DNA of 64,000 nucleotides from Candidatus Cloacimonadota bacterium (lineage in GTDB: Bacteria; Hydrothermota; E44-bin80): positions 14,802 to 78,801 of the forward strand of contig SOIS01000073.1 of assembly GCA_004375965.1 (NCBI GenBank), in the 5' to 3' direction. A model generated the notes under the pieces. The model was not told the DNA's origin and did not search any database. It was given only the letters and a program-made list of their open reading frames with translations. Positions within the stretch are counted from its first letter, which is position 1. Every line of letters starts with the position of its first letter. The position numbers and the translations under genes were made by a program. Positions 40,321 through 64,000 of the stretch are shown piece after piece.

Positions 40321-40799
40321 ATCTCTTTGATCCCTTTCTTATATGACTTGACAACGACCTTACCGTTGGACAGATGGAAATCAACCGACCTACCCCAGCT
40401 TCCACCTGTATCCTTTGATAGCACACTTATTGAATGCTTTTTAAGAACCTCTATAGCAGCATTGACATTCTTCTGTCCGATTGAATTCTTAGTAAGCGTT
40501 GGGAACATGTTTGCACCGCCAACAAGTTTTGCAATGAGTCTTTCCTTCTTTGCACCCAAATCTTTAATCCTTTTGATAAGAATCTCAATCCCCGTGTCAG
40601 AAAATTTTGCAAGGTTTTCGTCACTTTTAGCAATTGACCTTGTGGGTAGAAGGAAATGATTCATTCCACCAATCTTCGTAAGAGGGTCATATAACATCAC
40701 AGCCACACATGAGCCTAATCCGTATGTACTTAGAATATAAGGACTTGAGCCTACTGCAATATCAGCTATCCTAACCTTTATTGTTTGAGTATTTAACAC
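40317..40799 (-). CDS. cheD: chemoreceptor glutamine deamidase CheD
   Basis: YGLGSCVAVMLYD...GGMNHFLLP. Confidence 0.8.
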   Translation of the reverse strand: MLNTQTIKVRIADIAVGSSPYILSTYGLGSCVAVMLYDPLTKIGGMNHFLLPTRSIAKSDENLAKFSDTGIEILIKRIKDLGAKKERLIAKLVGGANMFPTLTKNSIGQKNVNAAIEVLKKHSISVLSKDTGGSWGRSVDFHLSNGKVVVKSYKKGIKEI

Positions 40800-41596: not shown

Positions 41597-41708
41597 TGAA
41601 CTAAAACATTCTTAAATTAACAAAACTGAGAGGTTAGACGCACTCACTTCAAGCACAAAGCATTAAATTCCAGAGAGGTTGTCCATCATCACTCTTCTTT
41701 CAACCCTA

Positions 41709-43322: not shown

Positions 43323-45251
43323 TCACTCAAGATTATGGTCTTCAAAAATTCTTTCATTCAGGTATGGCCATCTTTGGTCAAGTTCAGAAAGTAATGTCTT
43401 CTCTTCCGTAGTTGATGGAACCTTTGGCTTTTCTTTTTTTCTCAGTTTCTTTTGCTTCTCAAGTACAAGTTTTTCAATACCAATACAAGCTGAAATGTTT
43501 TCCATTGTGAGTTCAAGATTCTCATCTATAACTTTCTTAATGATATTTGCCACACTTCTTTTTATATCTATGAACTTTCCAAAAAGATTTTTGCTAAGGA
43601 ATTCCTTTATTTCATCCGGTAAAGAAATCCGTTTACAAGTAAAAAGGCTAGTGATTATTACCCTCTTATCTTCTTCATCGAGTTGTTTAATTGGAACTAC
43701 AGTTCCTGATAATAAGAGCTCTTTATAATTATCTTCCAAATCTAACTCTTCTGGTGGTAACTTGGACGACACAACTAAGAGTTTTTTCTCCTCCTTAAAA
43801 TTGTCCAGAACAACAACAAAAAGTGATTTAGACTCCCCATCATTTACTACATTCTCAATATCATCTAAGAGGATGGTATCAATCCCCTTTAGTTTTTCAA
43901 TATACATATTTCTGGCATCTTCATCAAAAAGGTTTTTTATCTCAATTGTTAAAAAATTTGATGGAATATAGGTAATTATTTTCTCTGGATATAATGATTG
44001 CATCTTTTTAGTAAAAGCTATTAAAAGGTGTGTTTTCCCACATCCATCGTCTCCATAAATATAAATAGGGGAATTTACATCTTGTTTCTTTGATAGTCCC
44101 TTTTTCAAAACCTCATATACTTCTCTATTAGAATGTAAGATAACAAAGTTTTCAGTGGTTGACCTTGCACTAAGGAATTTATTATATTCTTCCTTTAATT
44201 TCCTTCTTTCCTCTACTTTTTTGAGTGTCCTTTCTATGTCAAAAATAGCATCCGGGTCAAAAAGATTCTTTTCTAAATATTCCCTTTCTTCCAGAGTAGT
44301 TGTCTTCTCCAACTCACCAAATATTTTCTGTAGTTCAATGAGTCTTTGAATACCCGATGTAAATGAGACAAACGCTTGTATTATACCATCTATGGGTCCA
44401 TCCATAGCTTCTTCTAATCTTCTTACATTAAACCCTTTCATTTTCCAGATATAAAGTTTTAACATGTATTCATTTTTTATTGCCATCGTGTCCTTTTGCT
44501 CAGTTGCGCCTTTATCAAAATCTTCTTTTAAATCCTTGACAAAATCAAAAAATTCCTTATCCTCCCCGGGAAATGGGGCTAACCTCCTGTCGGGTGGGAC
44601 TATCTCCTCCAGAGCAATATTATCCTTCACATTCTCAACTGTGATTTCCTTTGTAACATCTTTAAGAAGGTCAATCTTTTTAAGGACAGTCTCTATCTCC
44701 CTGATATCATAAAAAGGTAAACCAGAAAGGAAATGTATTACATCATCCTTCAACTCCATTCCAAAATCACTACTTATCATTTTGAATATCCTGGAAACAA
44801 GTTCTGGGTCAGGTTTAAATATCGGAACTGTAAGTCCTTTCTTAATAAGAGAAACAAGCTGTTCAGATATGCCGAGTTCTTCCGGTGGGAGCAGAGATGT
44901 TATATAAACCTGTTTTTTTGCTGTAATAAAAGAATTAATGAAAGTATATAAATCCATACCCTTCTTTACCTCATCAGGCAAAAGATGGAGGTTTTCAAGG
45001 ATAAAGACAGAACCAACAGTCTTTGGAATGGATTTAAGTTCAGTACAATCTAAACAGAGAACATCCTCATCTTTAAGAATCTCTTTTACCGAACTTACAA
45101 GATGAGTTTTTCCAAGTCCTTTCTTTGAATAAATAAATAGTGGGTTTATATCGACCCCACGATTTTTTAGTGTTCTTTTCACAGAAAGGTATGCAAGTTG
45201 ATTTGCTCTACCAATTGCAAAATTGTTAAAAGTGTATTTTCTGGCTATCAT
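43323..45251 (-). CDS. tandem DnaA-type AAA+ ATPase protein (two DnaA domain-III-like modules, no DnaA domain IV)
   Basis: Module 1: YTFNNFAIGRANQLAY...NPLFIYSKKGLGKTHL...KQVYITS...GLTVPIFKPDPE. Module 2: SPIYIYGDDGCGKTHLL...ILLDDIENV...KKLLVVSSKLPPEEL...GTVVPIKQLDEE...ISLPDEIKEFLS. Confidence 0.6.
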   Translation of the reverse strand: MIARKYTFNNFAIGRANQLAYLSVKRTLKNRGVDINPLFIYSKKGLGKTHLVSSVKEILKDEDVLCLDCTELKSIPKTVGSVFILENLHLLPDEVKKGMDLYTFINSFITAKKQVYITSLLPPEELGISEQLVSLIKKGLTVPIFKPDPELVSRIFKMISSDFGMELKDDVIHFLSGLPFYDIREIETVLKKIDLLKDVTKEITVENVKDNIALEEIVPPDRRLAPFPGEDKEFFDFVKDLKEDFDKGATEQKDTMAIKNEYMLKLYIWKMKGFNVRRLEEAMDGPIDGIIQAFVSFTSGIQRLIELQKIFGELEKTTTLEEREYLEKNLFDPDAIFDIERTLKKVEERRKLKEEYNKFLSARSTTENFVILHSNREVYEVLKKGLSKKQDVNSPIYIYGDDGCGKTHLLIAFTKKMQSLYPEKIITYIPSNFLTIEIKNLFDEDARNMYIEKLKGIDTILLDDIENVVNDGESKSLFVVVLDNFKEEKKLLVVSSKLPPEELDLEDNYKELLLSGTVVPIKQLDEEDKRVIITSLFTCKRISLPDEIKEFLSKNLFGKFIDIKRSVANIIKKVIDENLELTMENISACIGIEKLVLEKQKKLRKKEKPKVPSTTEEKTLLSELDQRWPYLNERIFEDHNLE

Positions 45252-48623: not shown

Positions 48624-50858
48624 TCAAATCAATTCAAACTCAAACCCTCTCTCCTTGAAGATTATTAAGCAAGCATCTACCACCTCAGGAGCATAAAGTA
48701 TACCCCGATTCTCTGAGATTTCTTCCAATGCGGTATTTATGCTGTAAGCCGGGCGGTATGGGCGGTGTGAAGACATTGCTTCAACAACATCTGCCACTGC
48801 CAGGATTTTTGCTTCCACAAGAATTTCATCTCCACTTAGACCCTGAGGATACCCAGACCCATCCAACCTTTCATGATGTTGTAACACGGTTTGAGCGACT
48901 GGCGAAGAAAATTCTACTGTTTTCAAAATGTCATACCCAACCTGAGCGTGAGTCTTGACTAATACCATTTCTATTTCGCTCAGTTTAATAGGTTTGTTGA
49001 GAATCTCGGCTGCAATATGTACCTTGCCAATATCGTGCAGTATACCCGCTACACGAATCCCCTCAATTTTCTCCTCAGAAAGCCCCATCTCTTTTGCTAT
49101 AGCACAGGCAAGCTGGGTCACACGCCGTTGATGACCTGCTGTATAAAGATCCCTCTTTTCGACAGTCGATGCCAGGGCATTAACCGTTCCCTCAAGGGTT
49201 CTTTGTAATTTCCAAAAACTTCGTTTCAGTTCTTCCTCCGCCCGCTTGCGCTCAGTGATATCCTTCATCGTTCCCATACTTGCTATCTTACCTCTATAAT
49301 TGATAACTCCGACATTCATATTGACTATGACTCTGGTTACCCTATCCTTGTGTAACATGCAGAATTCGTATTCACGTGGGATATCTTCCCCTGCCTGCCT
49401 TCGATGGTAGCGATCTGCAACCATCTCTGAATCCTCTGGTGCAATGAGTTCTCGAAAGTCCATCCCAATAATCTCCTCCACCGTGTAGCCAACCATTCTT
49501 GCAAATGCCTCATTGGCAAATTTCATTTCAGCATCCTGGATAATAAAGACACCGTCCTGAATATTGTCAATTAATGTTCGATATTTTTCTTCAGAGAGTC
49601 GCAGCGCTTCCGCTGCCCTTTTCTGCTCAGTTATGTCCATTACCATCCCGATGGTTCCCTGGAACTCCTTTTTATCATTTATCCAAGGAGTAGCGGAAAC
49701 CCTTATGTTTCTTAGTTCACCGTCTTTTCGCCTCATTACTGTTTCATATTGACTGGAAACTCTGTTTTTCCTTTTAGCAGATCCCTGTAATATTTTTTGG
49801 AGTTCTTCTTCCGAAGAGATCAATTCCCGCAGATTCATACCAATAATTTCTTCTTGGGAATAGCCAAGAATATTAGAAAACCAGGGATTGGCAAAAATAA
49901 TATTCTCATTGGTGTCCACAATACACATACCTTCCTGAATAGTTTCCACCAAAGAGCGGTATCGTCTTTCGCTTTCCCGCAAAGCCTCCTTCGCTTGCTT
50001 CCTCTCTGTAATATCTCCCAAAACACCATCAAAGTATAGTATTTCTCCCTTCTCGTCGGCAATAGCCCGAGCGTTTAGGGAGCCCCAGAAAACCGTCCCG
50101 TCCTTTCTCTTCAACTGAACCTCATAATTGGAGATCTCGCCAGACGAACTTAACGTTTTAATGAACCTCTTACGGTCATCCGGGTTGAGATAGAGATCGC
50201 CGACATGAACTTTGGACATCGCCTCTGGTTTCTTATATCCGAACATCTTAGCCAGGGCTGGATTCGCCGAAAGGATACGTCCACCAGGGTTTGCTGAAGT
50301 ACGGAACACCCCGACTGGAATGTTGGACTGTAGTGTCCGATATTGCTTTTCCGACTCACGTAGCGCCTTCTCCGCCTTTTCTCGCTCGCTGATGTCCCTG
50401 CAAATAACCCGCAACTCTTTCGGTTCACCATCTTCATCAAAAATCAGTTGGGTTCTTCCCTGTACCCAGATAGTTGAACCATCTTTCCGTACCTTGTGAA
50501 ATTCCAATGCACTTTTCTTTAGTTTTTTACTAAAGATTTCGGAAATCTGCTTTTTAACCCTTTTTAAATTATCATTATGTACAATTTTCCACACAGGTTC
50601 ACCGATTAATTCCTCTTTGCTGTATCCCAGATATTCTGCACCGTACTGATTGACAGATGTCATCGTTCCATCTGGTTTGATGGAGAAATACATATCTGGA
50701 GCATGATCGTATAAATCTTGATATTGTTCCTCTCTCTTCTTTAGTGCTTTCTCAGCCCGCTTGCGATCGGTTTCTAATTTTTCAAATTCAGCAACTCTTC
50801 GGCGCGCTTCTACCAATTCATTTATGAGTTGCTCTTTTGTTTTGTTTTTGTCTTTCAT
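48624..50858 (-). CDS. multi-PAS HD-GYP domain protein (probable c-di-GMP phosphodiesterase)
   Basis: N-terminal coiled coil, about four PAS repeats, then HQRRVT...ILHDIGK...HHERLDGSGYP. Confidence 0.8.
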   Translation of the reverse strand: MKDKNKTKEQLINELVEARRRVAEFEKLETDRKRAEKALKKREEQYQDLYDHAPDMYFSIKPDGTMTSVNQYGAEYLGYSKEELIGEPVWKIVHNDNLKRVKKQISEIFSKKLKKSALEFHKVRKDGSTIWVQGRTQLIFDEDGEPKELRVICRDISEREKAEKALRESEKQYRTLQSNIPVGVFRTSANPGGRILSANPALAKMFGYKKPEAMSKVHVGDLYLNPDDRKRFIKTLSSSGEISNYEVQLKRKDGTVFWGSLNARAIADEKGEILYFDGVLGDITERKQAKEALRESERRYRSLVETIQEGMCIVDTNENIIFANPWFSNILGYSQEEIIGMNLRELISSEEELQKILQGSAKRKNRVSSQYETVMRRKDGELRNIRVSATPWINDKKEFQGTIGMVMDITEQKRAAEALRLSEEKYRTLIDNIQDGVFIIQDAEMKFANEAFARMVGYTVEEIIGMDFRELIAPEDSEMVADRYHRRQAGEDIPREYEFCMLHKDRVTRVIVNMNVGVINYRGKIASMGTMKDITERKRAEEELKRSFWKLQRTLEGTVNALASTVEKRDLYTAGHQRRVTQLACAIAKEMGLSEEKIEGIRVAGILHDIGKVHIAAEILNKPIKLSEIEMVLVKTHAQVGYDILKTVEFSSPVAQTVLQHHERLDGSGYPQGLSGDEILVEAKILAVADVVEAMSSHRPYRPAYSINTALEEISENRGILYAPEVVDACLIIFKERGFEFELI

Positions 50859-51111: not shown

Positions 51112-54100
51112 ATGGAAAGAAAGATAAACGAAACGGGTCTTTTTGAAGGAAAAATAAAAACCATCCTCGGATTATTGAAACAACATAACGATACTATATT
51201 GAGAAATAATACTGAACTCGTCTCACTGTTAAAGAGGAGAGAAACCGCTCTTCGTAACCTGACAGAGGGTGAATATTCAATATCAGAAAATCTTGATAGT
51301 ATGAGAAAGGAGACCCATAATCTGTTTGCATCTACCCAGATAATCTCTGAAGCAACAGAAGTTGCCCTATCTGCACTTGAAGAACAAAAAAAGACCTGGG
51401 AAACAAAGTACTCCAATCTCGATAACGCTACAACAGGTTTCAGTAGAATAATTGGAACAATCTCAGAATCAATCTACAGCCTGAGAGAACTTGGTGAAAG
51501 AATAAGAAAGATAGAAATTGCTATGGATAAAATACATAATATTTCACATCTAACCCGCGGTGTTTCAAGGAATGCAGGGATTAAAGCATATCATGCTGGA
51601 GAAAAGGGCAAGGGTTTCGAAGTAATAGCAAGGGAGCTATCACAGTTAACCAAAGAATCACAAAGAATTACTGTTACGGTGCCAGAAGCGATAAAAAGAT
51701 TTCAAACCCAAACAAAGGAAGCAGTGAATTTTATAACACAACTAACACACAATATTGAACTGGTAAAGAAAAATACAGAAGATATGAAACTGAAACTTAA
51801 ATCAAGCGAACAGTTCTTAAGCGAGTTTATGGAGGTCTCCAACATAATCCATAACTCTGTTGATAAGCAGGTAGGAGTAGAAGAGGAATTAGGAAGGGAA
51901 GAAGAAACTATTTCAAAATTCTCTACGCAGTTGTTGATTGAAACAGGAAGTATCACAGCTCTTGAGCAGAGCCAGAGTTCCCTTTCACTTATTATTAATA
52001 AATTTGTAGAAAACTCTTCTCAAATCATATCTTCCCTTGAGCAAAAGGGGGATGAGTCCTTCGATGTCAATATAAGAAAATCTTCAATAAATAATGATAA
52101 ACTAAAAGAATATATGCTCAGAGTATCTTCATTGACATCCCAGATAAAAGAGATCTCACTTGAGGCAAAGAGGCACTTTGAATCACAGAAGGAGACGGTA
52201 TCACAGTTTCTTACCATAATAAATGAAAACAAGATGGTTAAGCAAGAAATCAGCAAGAAAACCAACTCATTAATGGAAATATTAAAAGAGGTCACGAAAC
52301 TCTTTTTAGAAACAAATGATCTGTCAGAGAAAATAATTTCAATCATAAATGAAATGATACATCTTGTTGAAAGGACAGACAGTTATTTTTCTTCCCTTGA
52401 AAAAGAGATAGAGTGGGTAGTTGAAATAGTCAGGAAACTCAAGAAATTCTCTAAAAGAAGTAATCTTCTTTCCCTCTATGCATCAATAGAGACGGCAAGA
52501 TCCTTTGAATTTAAGAAAGAACTCGATGTGATTGTAAATCAGATAAAAGAATTATCAAAACAGTCATCCAGTTTATTGAGAACAATAGAGGAATCCGTTA
52601 ATAAGGCAAAATCTTCACTTAAAAATGTTCATAAGATTATGCTCGAGACCTCTGAAAAACTTGAAAATACCAAAGATGAATTCAAACCTATGCTTAAAGA
52701 GTTTCATAATCTTATTGAGTCAACTGAGAAACTGAATGAAATAGTTAATGAGATGCTGAATGCCCTTGAGAAACAAAAAGGTCTTGAACAAAATCTTATC
52801 TCTCTCGAGGAAACACTCTCCTCAAAGATAGACGAAAATATACTCATGAACAGAGAACTGGGGAAGGTAACGGAGAAAACAAGCTCAGTTGTATCAGAAC
52901 TATTAAATGAACTCGGGGAATTTGAGAAGGATTTAACTCCTTTTTTACCTTCTATTCAGAAATTGCCAAAAACAGTCTTAAGGCTGAGATTATCTGGAGA
53001 CATTATTGATATTGACCCATCCAAAACAACTGATGCAACATCCAACAGAGTCAGCACAACTATCTTTAAGGGTCTTGTTGAACAGGGCATTGATGCAAAT
53101 GTTATTCCCTCAATTGCAAGAAGGTGGAAACTCTCTGAGGATGGGCTTGTATGGAAATTTACATTACGAGACGACGTACGGTTTCATAATGGAGAAGCAC
53201 TCAATGCGAGCGATGTGAAGTTTACAATTGAACATCTTCTTTCAGGCCCACACAGTTATATGTTTGATATGATAAAAGGAGCAAAGGATTTCATAAGAAA
53301 TAAGAACAAGGATATAGAAGGAATAAAGATTACTGGTAATTACAACATTGAACTAAAACTAAACCATCCCTATATTCCATTTCTGAGAAATCTTGGGGTT
53401 ACCTGTGGAGGTATTGCAAAGGAGACAAAAAATGGACTTATCGGTGCCGGCCCATTTAGGTTAAAGAAATGGGAAAAAGGAAATAGAATTATTCTTGAAG
53501 CATTTGATGATTACTTTGGTAAAAAACCGTACTGTGATGAGATACATTTCATTATCTGTCATGATGAGAAAGAGACGTTTAAAAGATTTTCAGAAGGAGA
53601 ATTTGACATAATAGATATTCCCAGTTCAATCGAAAAAGGAGAATTGCTACAGAAAAAAGAAGTAAATGAAATCAACATAGATTCTTTATTTATCTATGAT
53701 ATTTATTATGTTGGTATTAATGTAAAACTACAAACCCCTTTCAAAGAAAATATGGTCAGACAAGCATTGAACTATGCTGTTGACAGAAATGAGTATATTG
53801 AAAAAATTGCACAGGATAGAGGCATACCTGCAAAGGGCATCTTTCCCCCAAATTTTTCTACATATAATAAGGCACTTACTGGATACGAGTATAACCCTGA
53901 GAGAGCAAAAACATTATTAAAAAATGCTGGTTTCCCCAATGGTTTACCAGAGGAATACCAATTTGACATCAGGGATTCAAAGACTGCAGTCATGGGTGCA
54001 GAAATCTTAAAAAAATATCTCTCAGAAATTGGCATACATTTGAAACTCAATCTACTCCCCTGGAAAGAATTACTCAGAAATGTTCATAGCGGTAAATCCT

Positions 54101-54429
54101 TGCTTTTTGCACTTGGCTGGGCAAATGATAACGGAGACCCTGATAGTTTCCTATACCCACTCTTTCATTCAAAGAATTGGGGCGAACCAGGAAATACCAC
54201 ATTTTATAAAAATAAAACTGTGGACAGACTGCTTGACAAAGCGGCAGCATTAACAGACCATTATAAAAGGCAGATGCTATATCAACAGGTAGAACAGATT
54301 CTCGTTGATGATGCACCCTGGATCTTCTTATATCACTCAAAACATACCTTCGCATGCCAACCCTATATAAGAGGATACTCAAAAAGTCCACTCGCTTCGG
54401 AAAGGCTTGAGGATGTCTGGTTCTACTAG
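51112..54429 (+). CDS. fusion protein: duplicated MCP-like signalling region plus C-terminal solute-binding protein family 5 domain (no signal peptide or TM)
   Basis: AYHAGEKGKGFEVIARELSQLTKES (matches MCP [25 protein letters not shown]) and degenerate second copy SNLLSLYASIETARS. C-terminal SBP_bac_5-like VWKFTLRDDVRFHNGEALNASDVKFTIE and GAGPFRLKKWEKGNRIILEAFDDYFGKKPY. Confidence 0.6.
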   Translation: MERKINETGLFEGKIKTILGLLKQHNDTILRNNTELVSLLKRRETALRNLTEGEYSISENLDSMRKETHNLFASTQIISEATEVALSALEEQKKTWETKYSNLDNATTGFSRIIGTISESIYSLRELGERIRKIEIAMDKIHNISHLTRGVSRNAGIKAYHAGEKGKGFEVIARELSQLTKESQRITVTVPEAIKRFQTQTKEAVNFITQLTHNIELVKKNTEDMKLKLKSSEQFLSEFMEVSNIIHNSVDKQVGVEEELGREEETISKFSTQLLIETGSITALEQSQSSLSLIINKFVENSSQIISSLEQKGDESFDVNIRKSSINNDKLKEYMLRVSSLTSQIKEISLEAKRHFESQKETVSQFLTIINENKMVKQEISKKTNSLMEILKEVTKLFLETNDLSEKIISIINEMIHLVERTDSYFSSLEKEIEWVVEIVRKLKKFSKRSNLLSLYASIETARSFEFKKELDVIVNQIKELSKQSSSLLRTIEESVNKAKSSLKNVHKIMLETSEKLENTKDEFKPMLKEFHNLIESTEKLNEIVNEMLNALEKQKGLEQNLISLEETLSSKIDENILMNRELGKVTEKTSSVVSELLNELGEFEKDLTPFLPSIQKLPKTVLRLRLSGDIIDIDPSKTTDATSNRVSTTIFKGLVEQGIDANVIPSIARRWKLSEDGLVWKFTLRDDVRFHNGEALNASDVKFTIEHLLSGPHSYMFDMIKGAKDFIRNKNKDIEGIKITGNYNIELKLNHPYIPFLRNLGVTCGGIAKETKNGLIGAGPFRLKKWEKGNRIILEAFDDYFGKKPYCDEIHFIICHDEKETFKRFSEGEFDIIDIPSSIEKGELLQKKEVNEINIDSLFIYDIYYVGINVKLQTPFKENMVRQALNYAVDRNEYIEKIAQDRGIPAKGIFPPNFSTYNKALTGYEYNPERAKTLLKNAGFPNGLPEEYQFDIRDSKTAVMGAEILKKYLSEIGIHLKLNLLPWKELLRNVHSGKSLLFALGWANDNGDPDSFLYPLFHSKNWGEPGNTTFYKNKTVDRLLDKAAALTDHYKRQMLYQQVEQILVDDAPWIFLYHSKHTFACQPYIRGYSKSPLASERLEDVWFY

Positions 54430-55201: not shown

Positions 55202-55221
55202 GGGCTTAATAAGCTAAGCCC
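55202..55221 (-). terminator. rho-independent terminator (bidirectional position between convergent genes)
   Basis: GGGCUUAGCUUAUUAAGCCC followed on the minus strand by UUUCUUUUUUC. Confidence 0.55.
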
Positions 55222-55268: not shown

Positions 55269-56327
55269 TTATTCCGTAAGTACAAATCTAACAGGAAAAT
55301 AATACCAGACTGCAACCGGTTTACCATCTCTTTTTGCAGGAGAAAAAACAGAATGCTTAACTGCCTCAATCGCCACACTATCAAACAGAGGAGAAAGATG
55401 GTTTTCAACTTTCACCTCTTGTACCATACCGTCTCTTCCAATTAACAGTCGTAATGAAACAACTCCTTCAATACCTTTCTCCCTTTCACTTTCAGGATAA
55501 GCAGGTATTACTGTCGTAATTGTTATGGGTGGAACATCAAAGAATTCTAAAATCTCAGCTCTCTCGACCCCTCGAGAATGGGAAACAATAAAATAATCCA
55601 ACTGTTCTCCCATGGCATCATAACCCTTTATGTCAACCTCGTCACGTTCACTGTCATAATAAAAACTAATAACACCGGGTTTAACCTGTTCAGGGACAAC
55701 AAAAACCTCTTTATCTCCTGTTACAGGATTTATAATGCTATCCAGATTTTCTGACCAGATCATACTCAAACTTCCAGGAAGGAAACCCTGCGAATCCCTG
55801 TATTGAATCACCTTTTCAGCTAATTTTATTACGTTTAACCTTGCTTTTCTCGAAATATCTTGCCAGCGATGGGTTTCCCAGAATTCATCACACTCCAATC
55901 TCCATTCATGCTTTTTATTTCCGAGAGTTACCTTTCTTAATTTCATTACCCCTGGGACAAGGTCGCCTTCTTTCGTCCTCCTGTAATATGCAAGCTGTTT
56001 ACCATCCTTTAGAACAAGAAAAACATAAAAGGTAGCTCTATCTCTACTCATCTCTTGCTCTTTGACTATGACCTTACCAATGAACCTGAGTGTAACGACG
56101 TTTGTAAAATCAAGAAGGTAGGGGTCTACATCGTCCAGGCACAAAGATGCTGCTTTCTTATATGAACCTTCATTGATCAAGTTAAAAAATTTAGTCAGTG
56201 TGTAAGCAGGATCCTCCCCAGTCTTATTACAGTTAAAAAAGAGTATTAAAAAAATAAGTAACGTTTGGAATAACCTGAGATGATAAGAGAAAATGCTAAA
56301 TCTTTTTGTTCTTTGTAATCTCTTCAA
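55269..56327 (-). CDS. TonB C-terminal domain-containing protein
   Basis: C-terminus PAYPESEREKGIEGVVSLRLLIGRDGMVQEVKV...FDSVAIEAVKHSVFSPAKRDGKPVAVW is a TonB_C fold. N-terminal signal/anchor. Confidence 0.6.
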   Translation of the reverse strand: MKRLQRTKRFSIFSYHLRLFQTLLIFLILFFNCNKTGEDPAYTLTKFFNLINEGSYKKAASLCLDDVDPYLLDFTNVVTLRFIGKVIVKEQEMSRDRATFYVFLVLKDGKQLAYYRRTKEGDLVPGVMKLRKVTLGNKKHEWRLECDEFWETHRWQDISRKARLNVIKLAEKVIQYRDSQGFLPGSLSMIWSENLDSIINPVTGDKEVFVVPEQVKPGVISFYYDSERDEVDIKGYDAMGEQLDYFIVSHSRGVERAEILEFFDVPPITITTVIPAYPESEREKGIEGVVSLRLLIGRDGMVQEVKVENHLSPLFDSVAIEAVKHSVFSPAKRDGKPVAVWYYFPVRFVLTE

Positions 56328-57393
56328 TTACCCTTCTAAAATTTTCAATAAATTGTTTTTTACTGAACTTTAATGATACTTCTCTCACATTTTGAATATT
56401 AAAATCTTCCGAGTTAAAATTGAGAACAGTATCCATCAATGCTTCAGGGGTTTGAGGGTAAAAGAAGAGTCCATTTGTGCCTTCTTCTACTGTCTCTGAA
56501 GCACCCCCTCCATTAAATGCAATAACAGGTGTCCCACATGCACTCGCTTCAAGTGGAACAATGCCAAAATCTTCAAACGTTGGGAAAATAAGAGCCTTTG
56601 CCCTCCTATAAAAACTCCTTACCTCTTCGTCTGACCTTTTTCCAAGAAACTGTATATTGCGGTTGGCGGTCCTCCCAAGCCTTCCTTTCATTGAACCTTC
56701 CCCAATAATAAGGAGTGGTATTTTCATTTCATTGAATGCATTAATTGCTATATCTATTCTTTTATAAGGACGTAGCCTCGAAACAATAAGAAAGAAGTCT
56801 TCTTTCTTGATTCGCTCATCGGGTGTAAAAAAATTGGTATCTACTGGTGGATAAATTATCATTGGTTTAATTCCATAAAATTTTTCTATTCTCTTTCCTA
56901 CTGTTTTAGATATAGCAATAATTATGTCAGGTCTTCTACTTGTGTTTTCATCCCATAATCTAATAAAATGAAGTCCGAGGGCAAGTAATATTTTGGTTAA
57001 ACCCTTTCTCGCTTTTACTAACGAGTGGTATGAGTCCCAGGCAAATCGCATCGTATTCAACATATAGTTAATATGGATAGTTGAGGGAAGTGTAATTACA
57101 CCTTTTGACCACGCACTTGAAATGGAGATAACCAGGTCAAAATTATTCAAGTCAAAACCTTCGATTGCAAGCGGCATAAGAAAAAAATATTTTTCATAGT
57201 GTTTTCTCACAAATGGAAGTTTTTTTAAAAAGCTCTCCTTTATGTTCCATTCTTTGAAATGGTCAGGGATATGGGCGCGATCATAGATAAGTGTATAAAC
57301 AGGTGCCTCTGGGAAGAGTTTATGAAAAATCTCAAGGACTCTTTCTGCTACTCCATATTGATTAAGATAATCATGAACAAGTGCTACCTTCAT
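56296..57393 (-). CDS. glycosyltransferase family 4
   Basis: MKVALVHDYL...GVAERV N-terminus. C-terminal GT-B domain with PLEASACGTPVIAFNGGGASETV. Confidence 0.75.
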   Translation of the reverse strand: MKVALVHDYLNQYGVAERVLEIFHKLFPEAPVYTLIYDRAHIPDHFKEWNIKESFLKKLPFVRKHYEKYFFLMPLAIEGFDLNNFDLVISISSAWSKGVITLPSTIHINYMLNTMRFAWDSYHSLVKARKGLTKILLALGLHFIRLWDENTSRRPDIIIAISKTVGKRIEKFYGIKPMIIYPPVDTNFFTPDERIKKEDFFLIVSRLRPYKRIDIAINAFNEMKIPLLIIGEGSMKGRLGRTANRNIQFLGKRSDEEVRSFYRRAKALIFPTFEDFGIVPLEASACGTPVIAFNGGGASETVEEGTNGLFFYPQTPEALMDTVLNFNSEDFNIQNVREVSLKFSKKQFIENFRRVIEEITKNKKI

Positions 57394-57561
57394 AAAAACT
57401 CTCCATCATCCATTTTCTTATTCATCTTATAGCAAACAAAAAAATTATAGTCAAGTGAAAAAGACCTCTATGCTATACCCTCGTTTCGACACTGATACGA
57501 TACGTCAAATAGAACCTCATCTCCCATCACAAAGCAATGGTCGTAGTGGTAAGTATGTTTT

Positions 57562-58272
57562 TTATACCTTTTCATAACCCCACTTCTTCTCTATCATATT
57601 TCGTGCTTCACCACCACAGTTAAAAAGAAGATCAAGGATTGAAAGATTTGGAATGAATTTTCCCCAGAGCTGAGGATAAATAAATGAGCCGTACTGATAA
57701 TAAAGAATCTCAATTTTCTCTTTTTTGAATACACTCTCATCAAGGTAATTCCTTGCACCTGCACCTGAAAGATACACATTTCCATCAAGCTCTTTTACTA
57801 TCGAAACAAGCAGTTCTGTCTTCCCTCCTTTAACATTCAGTTGCGAAGCACTGTATATCTCCCTATTTATTTTAAGCTTCTTCATTACAAACTCGAGAAG
57901 AACGACATTAAAATCTACCAGCCGTTCCCATTCGTTTGAGTATATTTGCTTTAGCTCTTTTCTGTAATAATGGAAGAATGGAGCATTTGCATAATTCATG
58001 AGTAGTGTTCCAAAATGTTTTTTTTGCCATCTAACTGTTTTATTAATAATCACCTCATTAATCTCTTGATAAAACCTTCCCTTTTTATAAACAGGGACGG
58101 TAAGCCATATAGTGTTTCCCTGGGAACCTTTTATCCTGTTTCTATGAGTGAACGACCTTCTTGAAAATTGTACATTATCAAGAAGAACAAAAACATCTGA
58201 CCTGATTACCTTATAAAAAAACCCCGGCCAGGGGATATAGTTAGGCTGATGAGCAGCGATAACTTTACGCAT
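57562..58272 (-). CDS. WbqC-like family protein
   Basis: VIAAHQPNYIPWPGFFYKVIRSDVFVLLDNVQFSRR matches the WbqC-like family seen in O-antigen/glycan clusters. Confidence 0.7.
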   Translation of the reverse strand: MRKVIAAHQPNYIPWPGFFYKVIRSDVFVLLDNVQFSRRSFTHRNRIKGSQGNTIWLTVPVYKKGRFYQEINEVIINKTVRWQKKHFGTLLMNYANAPFFHYYRKELKQIYSNEWERLVDFNVVLLEFVMKKLKINREIYSASQLNVKGGKTELLVSIVKELDGNVYLSGAGARNYLDESVFKKEKIEILYYQYGSFIYPQLWGKFIPNLSILDLLFNCGGEARNMIEKKWGYEKV

Positions 58273-58301
58273 AACAAGTTATGAGGAAAGTTTAAAATTT
58301 C

Positions 58302-58670
58302 TTAGAGACTTTTTGCAAGGAAGACCACGCCTGCAGCAATTAAAATAATACCAAACATTCTATATAGACTGATGGCTTCGCCAAAGAATTTCCAGGAAAT
58401 AAGGAGTATAAGAACATAACTAACACTTAGCATAGGATAGGCAAAACTCAGCTCTATCCTTGATAGAGCTCCTATCCAGAAAAATGCTCCAATGCCATAG
58501 AGAATGAATCCAAGAAGAATAAATGGCTGCTTGAAAACCGCAACGAAGAATGGTCCAAGTTGATTAAAATCCAAACTAAGTTTTCCTGCAGCACTTGTTC
58601 CATACTTAATAGAGCTCTGACCAGCTACATTAATAAGGATACAAATGATAATATATATGATTCCCTTCAT
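58302..58670 (-). CDS. small EamA/SMR-like 4-TM membrane protein (ArnE/ArnF-like)
   Basis: 122 aa with four hydrophobic helices. GGAGG Shine-Dalgarno 5 nt upstream. Confidence 0.5.
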   Translation of the reverse strand: MKGIIYIIICILINVAGQSSIKYGTSAAGKLSLDFNQLGPFFVAVFKQPFILLGFILYGIGAFFWIGALSRIELSFAYPMLSVSYVLILLISWKFFGEAISLYRMFGIILIAAGVVFLAKSL

Positions 58671-58903
58671 TGTACCTCCATATTTAGTAATTAAGTAAAT
58701 GAGTAACTAAGTAATTTAATAATTTATTCAATGTTAAACACTTCCTTGTCTTTTTGACGTTTATTAGAAGCTACGTAAGCGTTCAAGACCTTTATCAATA
58801 GATATGCAAATAATTTCCCTACCATTATGGGTTCCAAGGAAACATCTTCAGCATCCTTATAGTATAGTGATAGCATAGTGTTTCGTGATCCGTCATGATA
58901 ATT

Positions 58904-60064
58904 TTATCTCCTGTATAATGCAATGATTTCACGGACAGTATTGATAACGTCCTGAACATCATTATCTGTTAACTTCGCTGATAACGGAATGGAAACCGTT
59001 CTATCGGATATCCAGTCCGCATTGGGAAAATCACCCTGCTTATAACCATACTTCTGCTGATAATAAGGCTGAAGATGTAAAGCAATATAATGAACTCCTA
59101 CACCAATGTTTCTCTTCGCCATCTCATAAAGGAATTCATCACGAGTGATATTCAGTTTGTCAATATCTAAAAGAAGAGTATAAAGATGATAAGAATGTTT
59201 TACCCCATTCGGAATTGGTGCTGGAATAAAAACTGGTAAATCCTTGAAGGCTTCATTATATCTTTCCCATATCTCCTTTCTCCTTTCCCAGTATTTTTCC
59301 ACCCTTGGAAGTTGATGAATTCCGATTGCTGCCTGGATATCCATCATTGTAAGTTTAAATCCTCTGTCGATAACCTGGTAGTGTTTATATTTTTTATCGA
59401 AGGAACTATGCAACTTATCCTTACGTATTCCATGGAAACTTAATCTCTTAATCTTATTGGCATACTCCTCAACATTCGTGATCGCCATCCCTCCTTCACC
59501 CGTAATGATGTTCTTTGTAACATAGAAACTGAAACATCCTATGTCTCCAAACGTGCCAGTCTTCTTGCCATTATACTCAGCTTCGATAGCATGAGCAGCA
59601 TCCTCAACTATTTTTAAGTTATGTTTGTTTGCTATGTCCACAATCCTATCCATATTACAGGGACGACCTGCAAAATAAACTGGGATAATTGCTTTTGTCT
59701 TAGGTGTAATTTGCCTTTCAATATCCTCCGGGTCCATATTCATTGTATCTTTCTCACAATCCACAAGAATAGGCTTTCCACCTGCGTGAATTACAGCATT
59801 GGCAGTAGAAGCAAATGTCATTGATGGCAATATTACTTCATTCCCGGGCTTTATACCTATGGCAAGCATTGAAAGATGCAGAGCGGCAGTGCAGGAGTTT
59901 AATGCCATTGCGTATTTTACACCTTTATACTCCTTAAACATCTCTTCAAATTTGTGCACCTTGGGTCCTGTCCCAAGCCATCCCGATTTCAACGAGGTAA
60001 CAACCTCGTCAATCTCTGCCTGCTCTATCAAAGGCGCCCCGAAGGGGAGAAAGGTTTCTCTCAT
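58904..60064 (-). CDS. DegT/DnrJ/EryC1/StrS family sugar aminotransferase
   Basis: FLPFGAP...EIDEV...SGWLGTGPKV N-terminus. PLP-lysine region FSFYVTKNI. Confidence 0.85.
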   Translation of the reverse strand: MRETFLPFGAPLIEQAEIDEVVTSLKSGWLGTGPKVHKFEEMFKEYKGVKYAMALNSCTAALHLSMLAIGIKPGNEVILPSMTFASTANAVIHAGGKPILVDCEKDTMNMDPEDIERQITPKTKAIIPVYFAGRPCNMDRIVDIANKHNLKIVEDAAHAIEAEYNGKKTGTFGDIGCFSFYVTKNIITGEGGMAITNVEEYANKIKRLSFHGIRKDKLHSSFDKKYKHYQVIDRGFKLTMMDIQAAIGIHQLPRVEKYWERRKEIWERYNEAFKDLPVFIPAPIPNGVKHSYHLYTLLLDIDKLNITRDEFLYEMAKRNIGVGVHYIALHLQPYYQQKYGYKQGDFPNADWISDRTVSIPLSAKLTDNDVQDVINTVREIIALYRR

Positions 60065-60386
60065 GAGAAAATGAGTTTATAAAGTTATTTAGTTATTGTG
60101 TTATTAAGTAAACAAATTATTTTTAAATCAATGCCTTGCTGAGTAAATATGTCATTTCTTTATTTTGTCTTTTCGATGTTTAAGTGATAAGATATAACCA
60201 TTTAATACTTTAATTAAAGTATACGCATCACCCTTTATTTCATCTCGTACTCTTCGTCGATATATCCTTCATCAAAGCATTCATTGAAATCATCGATCAG
60301 CTCACAAATCGAACCCCTGGAATGCCTGCAAAATTGAATGTTTTCCTGGTAATGGTACCTACCATATCCCTCAGCAATATTAGCAC

Positions 60387-61679
60387 CTACTCCATTAATC
60401 TCAAAATTATGTCTTTTAGCTGTGAGATGTGGGGTTTTTGTTCAACCTTCACTTCATCAGGGAGAATAACAAAGGCGTCATCCTGTGTATGCATACCAGT
60501 AAGAAATGAGTTTCCAAAGACTTCTTTTGCTTTAAAACTTCCTTTAAGGTCAAAACCATAATTGGATAAAGCAACAAGATCCGGTCCACTTTTTGTATAG
60601 GGACCGGAATAAATCTCCTCTCTTTTGAATATCCTTTTAATTATCTTCTTACCATTGCACTCAATTGATTGAAGTCTTTCTATTAATTCATCAATGAGTT
60701 CGTTATATTCACCGCCTGGAGAGACTACACCAAAAGGGTATTTTCCTTTTAGATTTATATAGATTCTACCCGGATCCATTACAAAAGCCCTGCTCCCCTT
60801 TTCTATATCTTCAACTGATTCAGGTTTATCATTTTTAAATCGTATATAACCCTCTTCCAATAGCCATCTATTAAGATATACCTCTTTTTCAATTTTTGTA
60901 AAACCGTGGTCGGAAAGAATAATAAGTTTCATCGAATTATCAATTTTTACTTTGATTTCCTTTATTATCTCATTGTCTATATGATTGTAGTAATCAAGAA
61001 ACGACTGATGTAACTTATGAGATGAATCAAAAAATGCATCAATAAGAAAATGTTGTATTCTATCCGTTCCTGTTATTACTCCAATAAAGAGGTCCCATTG
61101 CTCCTTATCCCAGAAATGTGCTATTGCCTTTTTTCTTATTTGCAGGATATCAAAAAGGTCTTTTATAAGGAAATCCTTATCTTCTCTTCCTTTAAGCGTA
61201 TCTACATCTATTCTGTAACCAATCGATTTAAGAAAGGGAATTATTCTTTCAGGATAACTCGCTTTTTCAATATGAAGAGCTACAAACCCTGCAATCAAAA
61301 TACCACATATAGGTTTTGCTGGATAAGTGCTTGGTAGATTTATAACAACCGTCCTTTTCCCTGTTTTTTCAAGTTCACTCCAGACAGGGGGATATTTCAA
61401 ATCAGAAGAATTAGGGAAACGAAGTTTGTATGAGAAAGGCGTAAGGTCTGTAAATCCAAATATACCGTGCTCTCCAGAATTTTTACCTGTCATGAAAGTA
61501 CTCCAGGCAACAGATGAAATTTCAGGGATAGTTGTGTCCATTTGATAAAAATTACCATCTTTGATTAAAGTATTGAGATTGGGCATTACATTCTCTTCTG
61601 CAAGTTTTTTTATAAGTGTATATGGAGAACCATCAAGCCCTATTACAACAATCCTCTTTCTTTTACCCAACCTAAACAT
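60387..61679 (-). CDS. alkaline-phosphatase-superfamily enzyme (type I phosphodiesterase/nucleotide pyrophosphatase-like)
   Basis: IVVIGLDGSPYTLI...MPNLNTL...TIPEISSVAWSTFMTGKNSGEHGIFGF. Confidence 0.7.
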   Translation of the reverse strand: MFRLGKRKRIVVIGLDGSPYTLIKKLAEENVMPNLNTLIKDGNFYQMDTTIPEISSVAWSTFMTGKNSGEHGIFGFTDLTPFSYKLRFPNSSDLKYPPVWSELEKTGKRTVVINLPSTYPAKPICGILIAGFVALHIEKASYPERIIPFLKSIGYRIDVDTLKGREDKDFLIKDLFDILQIRKKAIAHFWDKEQWDLFIGVITGTDRIQHFLIDAFFDSSHKLHQSFLDYYNHIDNEIIKEIKVKIDNSMKLIILSDHGFTKIEKEVYLNRWLLEEGYIRFKNDKPESVEDIEKGSRAFVMDPGRIYINLKGKYPFGVVSPGGEYNELIDELIERLQSIECNGKKIIKRIFKREEIYSGPYTKSGPDLVALSNYGFDLKGSFKAKEVFGNSFLTGMHTQDDAFVILPDEVKVEQKPHISQLKDIILRLME

Positions 61680-61973
61680 CTAATCTTCTCCTGTGGATAG
61701 TTCAAAAATTACAGTTCCTCCACCTGTGTATTCGCAGGGATCAAGGCATTGAAGATATGCTTTATTTCCTGTCTTTGCAAGCCCTAACGTTTTTGGGTCA
61801 ACTCCTTTTGAAAGAGATATATAGTAAGGCATAAAAGAAGCGAATGAATGTAGACACAATGCATCCGTTTCTTTGAGGTTAAGTCTGTACCCTTCCTCTA
61901 TCACTATTCTATCTCCCTCTTTATATACTGGACATTTGCCTTTTATTTTTATTACTTTAATGATGAGCCTCAT
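61680..61973 (-). CDS. TIGR04076-like small Cys-containing protein
   Basis: KGKCPVYKEGDRIV...ALCLHSFASFMPYY...LQCLDPCEYTGGGTVIFEL. The track ORF begins at a TTG (62048); I take the internal ATG at 61973. Stop abuts the AlkP start. Confidence 0.55.
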   Translation of the reverse strand: MRLIIKVIKIKGKCPVYKEGDRIVIEEGYRLNLKETDALCLHSFASFMPYYISLSKGVDPKTLGLAKTGNKAYLQCLDPCEYTGGGTVIFELSTGED

Positions 61974-62051
61974 TGAATTTGTTTTGTTTCTTTCCTTATG
62001 CTCCTGTACCTCGCGGTCTTGTATCATTTTTTCTTTATCTTTATCCAAGTA

Positions 62052-62663
62052 TTAGAGATAGCCGAGCATTTCAAGCCTTTTTTTGATCTCTTTCTCTTCC
62101 TTTTCAGTAACAAGTTCCTTTTCTTCATAAGCAGGAGGAATATACCCATTTGTTTCAAGCCACGTGAGCACTTTAGCTACGGATTCTTCAACCGACTCTT
62201 TATCCGTCTCAACCATAATTTCTGGATGCTCTGGCTCTTCGTAAGGGTCTGAAACCCCTGTGAAATTCTCAATCTCTCCATTTAAAGCCTTTTTGTACAA
62301 CCCTTTAATATCTCTTTCAATAAGAACCTCAAGTGGGCACTTTACATAAACCTCTATAAAATTATCGATTACCTTCCTTGCCTCACCCCGCCTTTCCCTG
62401 TAAGGCGAAATAAAGGAGACAAGAGTTACAACACCATTTCTTGAAAGAAGTTTTGCTACAAAAGTAACCCTTTCTATGTTCTTATCCCTGTCTTCTTTTG
62501 AAAACCCAAGATCCTTCGTGAGACTTTTCCTCACTATATCTCCGTCGAGTCGCTCGACATTCATGTTTCTATGAAGAAGAATCTTTGCTACTTCCTCCGC
62601 AATTGCGGATTTCCCTGAACCGGAAAGCCCTGTAAACCATAATGTAAAACCTTTATGTTCCAT
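62052..62663 (-). CDS. cysC: adenylylsulfate (APS) kinase
   Basis: FTLWFTGLSGSGKSAIA (P-loop), LDGDIVRKSL, GFSKEDRDKNIERV. Confidence 0.85.
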   Translation of the reverse strand: MEHKGFTLWFTGLSGSGKSAIAEEVAKILLHRNMNVERLDGDIVRKSLTKDLGFSKEDRDKNIERVTFVAKLLSRNGVVTLVSFISPYRERRGEARKVIDNFIEVYVKCPLEVLIERDIKGLYKKALNGEIENFTGVSDPYEEPEHPEIMVETDKESVEESVAKVLTWLETNGYIPPAYEEKELVTEKEEKEIKKRLEMLGYL

Positions 62664-62671
62664 AAATACTC

Positions 62672-63823
62672 CTATTCTACAAATGGATTATCAAACGACG
62701 TTAGTATTTCTGCGATTTCCTCCCTCATTATTTCACCAGGAGGACACTCTTTCTTTGAAATCATCTCTCGGATAACTGTCCCACTCGGCTTGACTCTGTC
62801 GGAGTCCGAATGTCCACAGGTTTTTACTGTGGCAATTGAAGCACATTTCTTACAGTAAAAAGAATGTTCAAATTTTAAAGGTTCAATCCCGAGGTCGGGG
62901 AATCTATCAAACATTCTCTGGGCATCAAATGTGCCATAGAATTTACCTACACCTGCATGATCTCTTCCAACAACAAAATGGGTACAACCAAAATTCTTCC
63001 TCATAATAGCATGATGTATTGCTTCTCTTGGTCCTGCATAGTGCATCCTTGTAGGAAGGATACTCATAACCACTCTATCCTTTGGATAAAAATCATTCAT
63101 CATCTTTTTATAAGTCTCAAGAATAACTTCATCCTTGAAATCGCCACTCTTCTTTCTACCCATTAGGGGATTTATAAAGAGTCCATCCACCACTTCAAGT
63201 GCGCATCTCTGGATGTATTCGTGAGCCCTATGTATAGGATTTCTTGTTTGAAATGCCACGACTGTATTCCACCCCTTCTCACGAAATAGTACCCTTGTTT
63301 CTCTCGTGTCAAGGTTAAATTCTGGAAAAGGTTCCCTTGAATCATCAATAAGGTCAATCTTTCCTCCAATGAAATAATCCTTTTTATTAAGCATCTCATA
63401 AACACCAGGATGACTTTTGTCCACTGTGCCAAAGACATTCTTTGAAATTTTTTCTTTATCAAACGAAAACTTATCCTCAACAAAAAGAAGAGCACTATAG
63501 TTACCCATCTCATCTACCAATAGAACATGTTCGCCGATTTCAATGGTATCTGCTTTCTCTTTTTCAACATCCAGAATAATTGGAATTGTCCAGACCGCCC
63601 CTGAAGGAAGATGCATTTCGTCTACTACTGTCTCCAGTTCAAGTTTACTCATAAACCCTTCAAGCGGACTGAATATACCCCTCGCTATATTCCTTACATC
63701 TTTTAATATCTCGTTATCCACTGAAATTTTACTATATTCACTTGCCTTCTCTGTTACCTCCCTTCTCTTTTCTCCAAGAAGTATCCTTTTTACAAGTTTA
63801 TTTCCGTGTGGTCTCGAAAGCAT
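62672..63823 (-). CDS. sat: sulfate adenylyltransferase (ATP sulfurylase)
   Basis: VVAFQTRNPIHRAHE, GPREAIHHAIMRKNFGCTHFVVGRDHAGVG. Confidence 0.85.
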   Translation of the reverse strand: MLSRPHGNKLVKRILLGEKRREVTEKASEYSKISVDNEILKDVRNIARGIFSPLEGFMSKLELETVVDEMHLPSGAVWTIPIILDVEKEKADTIEIGEHVLLVDEMGNYSALLFVEDKFSFDKEKISKNVFGTVDKSHPGVYEMLNKKDYFIGGKIDLIDDSREPFPEFNLDTRETRVLFREKGWNTVVAFQTRNPIHRAHEYIQRCALEVVDGLFINPLMGRKKSGDFKDEVILETYKKMMNDFYPKDRVVMSILPTRMHYAGPREAIHHAIMRKNFGCTHFVVGRDHAGVGKFYGTFDAQRMFDRFPDLGIEPLKFEHSFYCKKCASIATVKTCGHSDSDRVKPSGTVIREMISKKECPPGEIMREEIAEILTSFDNPFVE

Positions 63824-64000
63824 AGTAATTCCCTCCTCCCTTAATATAACTCCAAAGTAAAAAGTTAAAAGTAAAATTTAACAGATAATTGTGTAAATCG
63901 TACATCCATAGTTCAATTCTCTGTAAATTTAAATAGCCCTCGGCATCTTCAGACCGCTCCAGATTAGCTATCCTACCATTAAATAGATATTTATGTCCAC

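Follow-up and report, generated by a model that had tools for sequence, protein, structure and literature searches.

We report a minus-strand locus in which two genes of sulfate activation, sat (sulfate adenylyltransferase) and cysC (adenosine 5'-phosphosulfate (APS) kinase), are linked to a gene for an enzyme of the alkaline phosphatase (AlkP) superfamily, named here AlkP-1. It is located at one end of a 64,000-nt stretch of DNA (hereafter, the window) from Candidatus Cloacimonadota bacterium, assigned by its closest named homologue to candidate division WOR-3 (contig SOIS01000073.1, positions 14,802–78,801 of the forward strand). The explanation that we favor, with a probability of about 0.4, is derived from sequence comparison and holds that the head of the locus would provide 3'-phosphoadenosine 5'-phosphosulfate (PAPS), that AlkP-1 would act on a phosphosulfate nucleotide, and that the glycan genes of the tail would provide the acceptor for sulfation. 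The original prediction, made from the letters of the window, had suggested a sulfated and/or amino-sugar-modified surface glycan or glycolipid and had named two candidate unconventional partners of sat and cysC, the AlkP-family enzyme and a small protein of the TIGR04076 family. The comparative data strengthen the case for the former and speak against the latter.

Conservation of the sat-cysC-AlkP head

The sample of AlkP-1 orthologues comprised 80 loci (45–53% identity), 71 of them with enough upstream sequence. In 22 of these 71 loci, cysC is located directly upstream of the AlkP gene on the same strand, and the adjacency recurs in distant phyla. It was observed in at least six architectures, represented, besides WOR-3, in Blastocatellia (cysC-AlkP450-AlkP540-AlkP540), a Schekmanbacteria-type lineage (sat-AlkP458-cysC-AlkP436-AlkP(TM)710-AlkP660-TM275), a Verrucomicrobiota-labelled lineage (sat-cysC-AlkP), Thermoanaerobaculia (AlkP473-cysC-...-AlkP471), and Nitrospirota (UDP-glucose dehydrogenase-AlkP462-cysC-...-AlkP443-KpsF). 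AlkP-1 is encoded, among others, in GCA_964392665.1 (WOR-3), CP070750.1 and OY970261.1 (Aminicenantes), CAWDRU010000002 (Blastocatellia) and GCA_016219965.1 (Schekmanbacteria). APS kinase accounts for roughly one gene per several thousand. This rarity, together with the recurrence of the linkage through independent rearrangements, shows that the adjacency is not due to chance. Judging from gene context, AlkP-1 is quite probably tied in function to the PAPS pathway. Two operons deserve separate mention, L170 of Blastocatellia (cysC-AlkP454-AlkP543-AlkP537) and L172 (sat-AlkP459-cysC-AlkP437-AlkP708-AlkP656, with one or two small uncharacterised open reading frames (ORFs)), where AlkP proteins and small trailing ORFs are the only candidate PAPS consumers in the operon.

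Within WOR-3, the exact Sat protein of the window is present on 22 independent metagenome contigs, and the layout from sat to the final TonB_C gene is identical in five full-length places among the matches listed (L004, L005, and L007–L009). The junction between the AlkP-1 gene and the gene for a DegT-family aminotransferase holds three additional genes (DUF5674, an ORF of 89 aa and a 4,6-dehydratase-like gene) in L091 and in L006, whose Sat protein is identical to that of the window. In relatives whose AlkP is 69–76% identical to AlkP-1, the order holA, hypothetical gene, (type IX secretion system (T9SS) protein), UpxY, sat, cysC, AlkP is constant. The genes that follow AlkP are wholly different between lineages: one lineage has CapC, Wza-like and Wzc genes, and a second type of tail contains genes for a 4,6-dehydratase, Wzx, methyltransferases, and glycosyltransferases GT2 and GT4. 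Such variable tails were seen in L006, L174, L176 and L177, and the tail in the window is short, with one GT4 gene and neither Wzx nor Wzy. Thus, sat, cysC and AlkP make up a conserved head, which is joined to a variable set of glycan genes. The placement of the PAPS genes within a glycan cluster, proposed originally from the window, agrees with the UpxY antiterminator gene at the head of the locus and with the variable polysaccharide genes of its relatives. The original prediction also depended on conservation of the sat-cysC-TIGR04076-AlkP linkage in other genomes, and here the outcome was divided: sat, cysC and AlkP stay together, and the TIGR04076 gene does not belong to the conserved set.

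AlkP-1 and the use of PAPS

The predicted structure of AlkP-1 (mean predicted local distance difference test score (pLDDT) 91.8) is nearest in fold to phosphonoacetate hydrolase PhnA and to nucleotide-cleaving enzymes of the nucleotide pyrophosphatase/phosphodiesterase (NPP) group. A search of PDB sequences yielded an N-terminal match to PhnA only, and no NCBIfam model covers the protein. Residues D16, D206, H210, D257, H258 and H397, the ligands of the bimetal center, are invariant, as are N114, R182, R207, R305 and K379, and Ser55 aligns with the position of the PhnA nucleophile; the metal ligands and a Ser/Thr nucleophile are kept in all AlkP paralogues. AlkP-1 therefore has the same six metal ligands as the NPPs (Xac NPP, ENPP1–7) and PhnA, which belong with it to PF01663, and a Ser/Thr nucleophile at the PhnA position. 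The NPPs cleave phosphoanhydrides of nucleotides. AlkP-1 differs from these enzymes in several respects: identity is only 12–18%, the nucleophile is Ser rather than Thr, the gene is tied in the genome to APS kinase, and members often occur as tandems of two to four paralogues, some of them membrane-anchored. As no signal peptide or transmembrane (TM) segment was found in AlkP-1, the enzyme is expected to be cytoplasmic and to meet cytoplasmic nucleotides. The family is large (4,829 clusters at 50% identity, E≤1e-30), and our literature search retrieved no reported function for TIGR04076, COG3379, or PF01663 paired with sat or cysC.

Canonical PAPS-dependent sulfotransferases (Sulfotransfer_1/3; e.g., NodH, Stf0, the enzyme of L062) would take the place in the pathway that is proposed for AlkP-1, that of PAPS consumer in a glycan locus; their fold is unrelated to that of AlkP-1. 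Neither the nine proteins of the locus nor about 40 further proteins of the window gave a match to Sulfotransfer_1–5 or Stf0, and no canonical sulfotransferase gene was seen in the 10 kb upstream of the locus on related contigs. In addition, neither a tblastn search with the L062 sulfotransferase as query and positive control nor a scan for the 5'-phosphosulfate-binding (5'-PSB) and 3'-phosphate-binding (3'-PB) motifs gave a match in the window or in the WOR-3 loci. The original statement that no canonical sulfotransferase is recognizable at the locus thus stands.

In the pathway that we propose, Sat would convert ATP and sulfate to APS and CysC would convert APS to PAPS, the constant sat-cysC-AlkP-1 head thereby serving as the source of PAPS. 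This PAPS would be used for sulfation of a cell-surface glycan or a lipid-linked sugar and not for sulfur assimilation. The strain-variable tail (in the window, DegT, a small ORF, an ArnE/F-like flippase-type protein, WbqC, GT4, and TonB_C) would build and export an acceptor containing an amino sugar. AlkP-1, a two-metal NPP/PhnA-type enzyme of the cytoplasm, would act on the phosphosulfate nucleotide. Most likely, the sulfuryl group of PAPS would be transferred to Ser55 with release of 3'-phosphoadenosine 5'-phosphate (PAP), and then from the serine to a hydroxyl or amine of the acceptor. Such a route via a covalent intermediate would parallel the transfer of phospho-groups by the AlkP-fold enzymes EptA and LtaS. 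However, EptA/MCR-1, LtaS, OpgB and BcsG are embedded in the membrane, face the periplasm and use lipid donors, whereas AlkP-1 is a soluble cytoplasmic protein, for which a nucleotide donor is proposed. We infer the existence of a sulfated product, the contact of AlkP-1 with PAPS and the transfer of sulfate by AlkP-1 from the genes and their arrangement. The suggestion that AlkP-1 itself is the non-canonical sulfotransferase is tentative, and we hold it at clearly less than even odds. A doubtful generalization would be that an unrecognised class of AlkP-fold PAPS-dependent sulfotransferases, with a covalent sulfo-Ser/Thr intermediate, is made up of the COG3379-like AlkP-1 family together with its tandem paralogues, and that the cysC/sat-AlkP operons of WOR-3, Acidobacteriota, Schekmanbacteria, Nitrospirota and other lineages are self-contained systems of envelope sulfation.

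Several observations weigh against sulfate transfer by AlkP-1. Firstly, all support for it comes from genomic context, and a literature search found no sulfotransferase of the AlkP superfamily. Secondly, the acceptor-building genes of WOR-3 vary while AlkP-1 is constant, which would be odd for an acceptor-specific transferase. Thirdly, the locus in the window contains a single glycosyltransferase and no Wzx/Wzy or ABC export genes, leaving the acceptor undefined. Fourthly, an exosortase exopolysaccharide locus of Schekmanbacteria (L062:5662–15560; Wzz/GNVR, EpsH, EpsI, AlkP458, cysC, AlkP445, sulfotransferase, Wzy, AlkP565, AlkP547, GT4) contains a canonical Sulfotransfer_1/3 gene that starts 11 nt before the stop codon of the AlkP-1 orthologue AlkP445. 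At no other AlkP/cysC locus was a canonical sulfotransferase found alongside. A normal sulfotransferase can therefore occur together with AlkP-1, and the AlkP protein need not be the transferase. Fifthly, a cassette found in about 28 loci of Aminicenantes (e.g., L019, L022, L032, L040, L056) encodes AlkP431 (the AlkP-1 orthologue), a membrane-anchored AlkP of about 710 aa, AlkP661 and TM275, a membrane protein of 275 aa that weakly matches EMC3/TMCO1 (YidC-like), with no sat or cysC gene closer than 8 kb, so that a PAPS-independent function of the family is possible. The last two observations keep alive both a helper role and a PAPS-independent role of AlkP-1. The Aminicenantes cassette is usually preceded by genes for an ADP-forming acyl-CoA synthetase and a divergent nitroreductase; the acyl-CoA synthetase neighbor was set aside as functional evidence, being a case of lineage synteny in one closely related group only.

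The strongest competing explanation, which we regard as somewhat unlikely, is that AlkP-1 is a helper hydrolase of PAPS metabolism. It would convert PAP to AMP and phosphate, the task of CysQ or NrnA, or would hydrolyze pyrophosphate (PPi), APS or PAPS, thereby pulling the unfavorable Sat reaction and clearing inhibitory PAP, with the transferase encoded elsewhere or belonging to an unrecognised family such as WbqC. The constancy of AlkP-1 right after cysC in the supply module, against the variation of the acceptor genes, fits such a role, as do its nearest folds, which are hydrolases of nucleotides and phosphoanhydrides. The gene overlap in L062 is what would be expected for an enzyme that removes the product of the transferase, and the coexistence of the two genes there suits a helper at least as well. 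In addition, a second AlkP subfamily encoded between sat and cysC in the type-B loci could be a pyrophosphatase. On the other hand, L170 and L172 combine cysC or sat with three or four AlkP genes and no other annotated enzyme, and if all of these were helpers, PAPS would lack a consumer; three or four paralogues are also too many for a clean-up function. Further, neither the complete locus of the window nor the four variant WOR-3 tails contain a recognizable sulfotransferase. If AlkP-1 is a PAP phosphatase, it would be a functional analogue of CysQ and NrnA with a different fold, AlkP rather than IMPase or DHH/DHHA1. Pfam scans of about 50 window proteins found no IMPase match, and the DHH family is represented in the window by RecJ alone, which has a RecJ_OB domain. 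No AlkP-fold PAP phosphatase surfaced in literature searches, none of which was aimed at one by name.

It is improbable that AlkP-1 acts without PAPS, adding a phospho-group to a glycan or lipid or cleaving a phosphodiester (phosphonate handling and a phospho-sugar mutase activity would belong here as well), with its position next to cysC reflecting shared regulation of envelope genes. The known members of PF01663 do act on P–O or P–C bonds, the 707-aa AlkP paralogues are anchored in the membrane like the lipid-directed transferases of this fold, and the Aminicenantes cassette stands apart from sat and cysC. Nevertheless, the cysC-AlkP adjacency has survived at least six independent rearrangements, which include the interleaved order sat-AlkP-cysC-AlkP and operons devoid of any other annotated enzyme.

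Ordinary assimilatory sulfate reduction, with an incidental glycan neighborhood, is a very improbable purpose of sat and cysC, although Sat and CysC also catalyze the first two steps of assimilation. Among the approximately 50 window proteins no match to PAPS_reduct or NIR_SIR was found, in agreement with the original statement that cysH and sir are absent. No sulfate-reduction genes, whose presence outside the window would have spoken for assimilation, were seen in the 10 kb upstream of the locus on related contigs. In every WOR-3 relative examined, sat-cysC is situated between the UpxY antiterminator gene and the glycan genes. A survey of 181 WOR-3 metagenome-assembled genomes (MAGs) described the phylum as lacking sulfite reductase, and sat, cysC and cysH occurred together in only 11 of them (PMC12542636). 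The lack of reduction genes nearby and of sulfite reductase in the phylum makes assimilation an unlikely purpose. It is likely, if less firmly so than the link of AlkP-1 to the PAPS pathway, that PAPS made at this locus serves sulfation.

Sulfation of bacterial glycans and lipids shapes surface charge, interactions with phages and hosts, and the marine cycling of sulfur and carbon. To our knowledge, only a few sulfotransferase folds have been described. The placement of dedicated PAPS synthesis in a glycan locus already has a precedent. In rhizobia, nodPQ-nodH comprises a dedicated ATP sulfurylase/APS kinase copy that supplies a glycolipid sulfotransferase, and both it and the locus in the window are second-purpose PAPS modules in a glycoconjugate-modification cluster rather than parts of a cys regulon. 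They differ in that NodPQ belongs to the CysDN type and NodH to the canonical sulfotransferases, whereas the window locus encodes a homo-oligomeric PUA-type Sat and an AlkP-fold partner. That this partner hides a new enzyme class is a real but unproven chance. In any case, a large, widespread and uncharacterised AlkP family is now linked to PAPS synthesis across distant phyla. Should its members transfer sulfate, sulfotransferases would gain a further mechanistic class, and many uncultured lineages would turn out to have a capacity for sulfation that has so far gone unnoticed. Should they instead remove PAP or PPi, the family would provide a novel counterpart to CysQ or to pyrophosphatase and would account for how PAPS synthesis is driven in these organisms. 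On either reading, metabolic reconstructions should not count sat-cysC of WOR-3 toward assimilatory sulfate reduction.

The TIGR04076 protein

The gene between cysC and AlkP-1 encodes a protein that has no Pfam match and scores above the NCBIfam cut-off for TIGR04076. Its homologues are about 97 aa long versus 122 aa for the ORF, and its real start is probably Met26 (61973), giving 97 aa. It is 59–78% identical to aligned homologues from several phyla, among which C39, C65, H67 and C101 are invariant and C105 is present in 22 of 23. The AlphaFold2 model (pLDDT 86) has a weak match to the XdhC/CoxI N-terminal domain, and a search of PDB sequences with the protein gave no match.

That this Cys/His protein is an unconventional partner in sulfate activation, e.g., a sulfur or metal carrier, can hardly be upheld and is largely refuted by the comparative data, even though its gene abuts cysC and AlkP-1 in the window and its conserved Cys and His residues and weak fold match to XdhC would suit such a role. 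The TIGR04076 profile retrieved 80 metagenome loci; in 78 of them sat, cysC and AlkP are missing, and all three accompany the gene only in two near-identical WOR-3 contigs. The slot between cysC and AlkP holds the TIGR04076 gene in the window and in L004–L009, a 23S_rRNA_IVP gene in L174, and nothing in L176 and L177. We therefore ruled the protein out as a partner of sat and cysC. Nucleotide-sugar or glycan genes are present in 16 of the 39 TIGR04076 loci of at least 4 kb, a subset whose 14 closest relatives include 11 with such genes, the neighbors of the close relatives being WecB, UDP-sugar dehydrogenase, CapD, DegT, GT4 and Wzm/Wzt. The TIGR04076 gene is thus a dispensable lineage-specific insert outside the conserved core, and would be a hitch-hiking accessory gene of glycan loci with no part in sulfate activation.

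The motif scan revealed possible sulfotransferase-type ORFs with a PRSG[ST]T 5'-PSB motif and a 3'-PB-like motif within about 4 kb in two other TIGR04076 loci (L118:241–1290 and L120:2542–3543), which might be counted in favor of the protein as a partner. Genes for 23S_rRNA_IVP, a four-helix-bundle protein, are scattered in WOR-3 glycan loci (L174:9435–9824, L174:13355–13723, L176:18017–18394), and the occurrence of one of them in the exact TIGR04076 slot suggests an insertion hot spot.

Layout and expression of the locus and its surroundings

The genes of the locus, all of them on the minus strand, are listed in the table with the scores of their family assignments. The nine genes originally described were found at the positions claimed, and profile scores upheld their families. 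The spacing was reproduced nearly exactly, with gaps of 8 nt (given as 9 before) between sat and cysC, 3 nt between cysC and the TIGR04076 gene, 0 nt between the latter and AlkP-1, and 322 nt between AlkP-1 and the DegT gene. The order of the DegT and SMR-like genes was also described correctly, with a 50-aa ORF between them overlooked; a family search with its L004 orthologue gave no match. Sat matches its family over the full length, with a PUA-like N-terminal domain and an ATP-sulfurylase domain, and scores above the curated cut-off. In CysC, the P-loop GLSGSGKS is visible. The GT4 and TonB_C genes overlap by 32 nt.

Features of the locus, with coordinates given as positions within the 64,000-nt window
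Feature	Position	Strand	Profile scores and remarks
Leader/promoter region, from the UpxY gene (just outside the window) to sat	63824–64000	−	
sat, sulfate adenylyltransferase, 383 aa	62672–63823	−	PF01747 298 bits; PUA_2 165 bits; NF003166 518 (cut-off 387); TIGR00339 394 (cut-off 323)
cysC, APS kinase, 203 aa	62052–62663	−	PF01583 210 bits; NF002059 260 (cut-off 244); TIGR00455 240 (cut-off 138.7)
TIGR04076-family small Cys/His protein, 122-aa ORF	61680–62048	−	TIGR04076 53.7 bits (cut-off 33)
AlkP-1, NPP/PhnA-like AlkP-superfamily enzyme, 430 aa	60387–61679	−	PF01663 134 bits (cut-off 23)
AT-rich junction where the variable glycan tail joins the conserved head, 322 nt	60065–60386	−	
DegT/DnrJ/EryC1-family sugar aminotransferase, 386 aa	58904–60064	−	PF01041 426 bits
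50-aa ORF between the DegT and SMR-like genes	58724–58876	−	Called as a gene in every related contig
SMR/EamA-type small membrane protein with four TM segments, ArnE/ArnF-like, 122 aa	58302–58670	−	EamA 28.7 bits
WbqC-family protein, 236 aa	57562–58272	−	PF08889 251 bits
GT4 glycosyltransferase, 365 aa	56296–57393	−	Glycos_transf_1 103 bits; Glyco_trans_1_4 88 bits
TonB_C protein, N-terminal hydrophobic anchor and TonB C-terminal domain, 352 aa, last gene of the unit	55269–56327	−	TonB_C 66 bits
Intrinsic-terminator-like hairpin and T-run 3' of the TonB_C gene	55202–55221	−	GGGCTTAGCTTATTAAGCCC then TTTCTTTTTT

The UpxY gene lies 192 nt upstream of sat and is seen on related contigs. It encodes a 173-aa NusG paralogue assigned to the UpxY family by NF033644 (121.8 bits versus a cut-off of 100). 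Further upstream, the 10 kb examined contain a hypothetical gene, holA and a divergent serS. The first approximately 88 nt of the spacer between UpxY and sat (window positions 63913–64000 and beyond; L004:9809–9896) are kept in five WOR-3 lineages and contain a promoter-like site TGGACA-18-TAGGAT (63999–63970), a GGTAG core that recalls the ops element of RfaH, and a short hairpin AGCCGAGGGCT. This conserved leader may be the site of action of the UpxY paralogue. The start codon of sat, ATG, is preceded by the ribosome-binding site GGGAGGAGGG. Since the number of promoter-like sites in the window equals the shuffled expectation, just two signals were relied on, the site in the conserved leader and the strong terminator 3' of the TonB_C gene. 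Between sat and that terminator, the minus strand contains only two weaker sites of five pairs each, both intragenic (in the WbqC and TonB_C genes), and the terminator scan found no terminator-like site in the 322-nt junction between AlkP-1 and DegT. An Rfam scan of the whole window at gathering thresholds produced no matches, and hence there is no riboswitch ahead of sat. The locus would thus be read as a single transcription unit, from the leader through sat and TonB_C to the terminator, behind a gene for an UpxY-type antiterminator.

This arrangement resembles the UpxY-led capsular loci of Bacteroides, which share with it an UpxY-family NusG paralogue at the head, a conserved leader, and a conserved head followed by strain-variable glycan genes. 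It differs in that no UpxZ was recognized, the head consists of sat-cysC-AlkP, and the organism belongs to WOR-3. In the tail, the DegT-family aminotransferase and the SMR protein with four TM segments are reminiscent of ArnB and ArnE/F of the lipid A pathway for 4-amino-4-deoxy-L-arabinose (L-Ara4N). However, they score below the Arn equivalog cut-offs (ArnB, 362 versus 631 bits; ArnF, 54 versus 99; ArnE, 40 versus 92), and ArnA, ArnC, ArnD and ArnT had no match among the window proteins scanned. The DegT protein is also below the cut-off of the PseC model (373 versus 423.5 bits).

Elsewhere in the window, a second GT4 gene overlaps that of an LPG_synthase_TM (UPF0104) membrane protein (21234–23319, minus strand), and the two may be a separate glycolipid-modification pair. 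A 1105-aa protein (51112–54429, plus strand) combines an MCPsignal region with a C-terminal SBP_bac_5 domain, an unusual fusion. A chemotaxis-type block (38441–43283, minus strand) encodes a TPR protein, CheB, CheD, CheR and a DUF4388-TPR protein, and a second DUF4388 protein is encoded at 5944–6942. A 642-aa protein (43323–45251, minus strand) contains two stretches of the Bac_DnaA ATPase domain and no recognizable N- or C-terminal domains of DnaA. Finally, there are two large HD-domain signalling proteins, 2113–3738 and 48624–50858, both on the minus strand and with HD-GYP-like sequence; one of them has GAF and HD/HD_5 matches in Pfam, and the other has multiple PAS domains.

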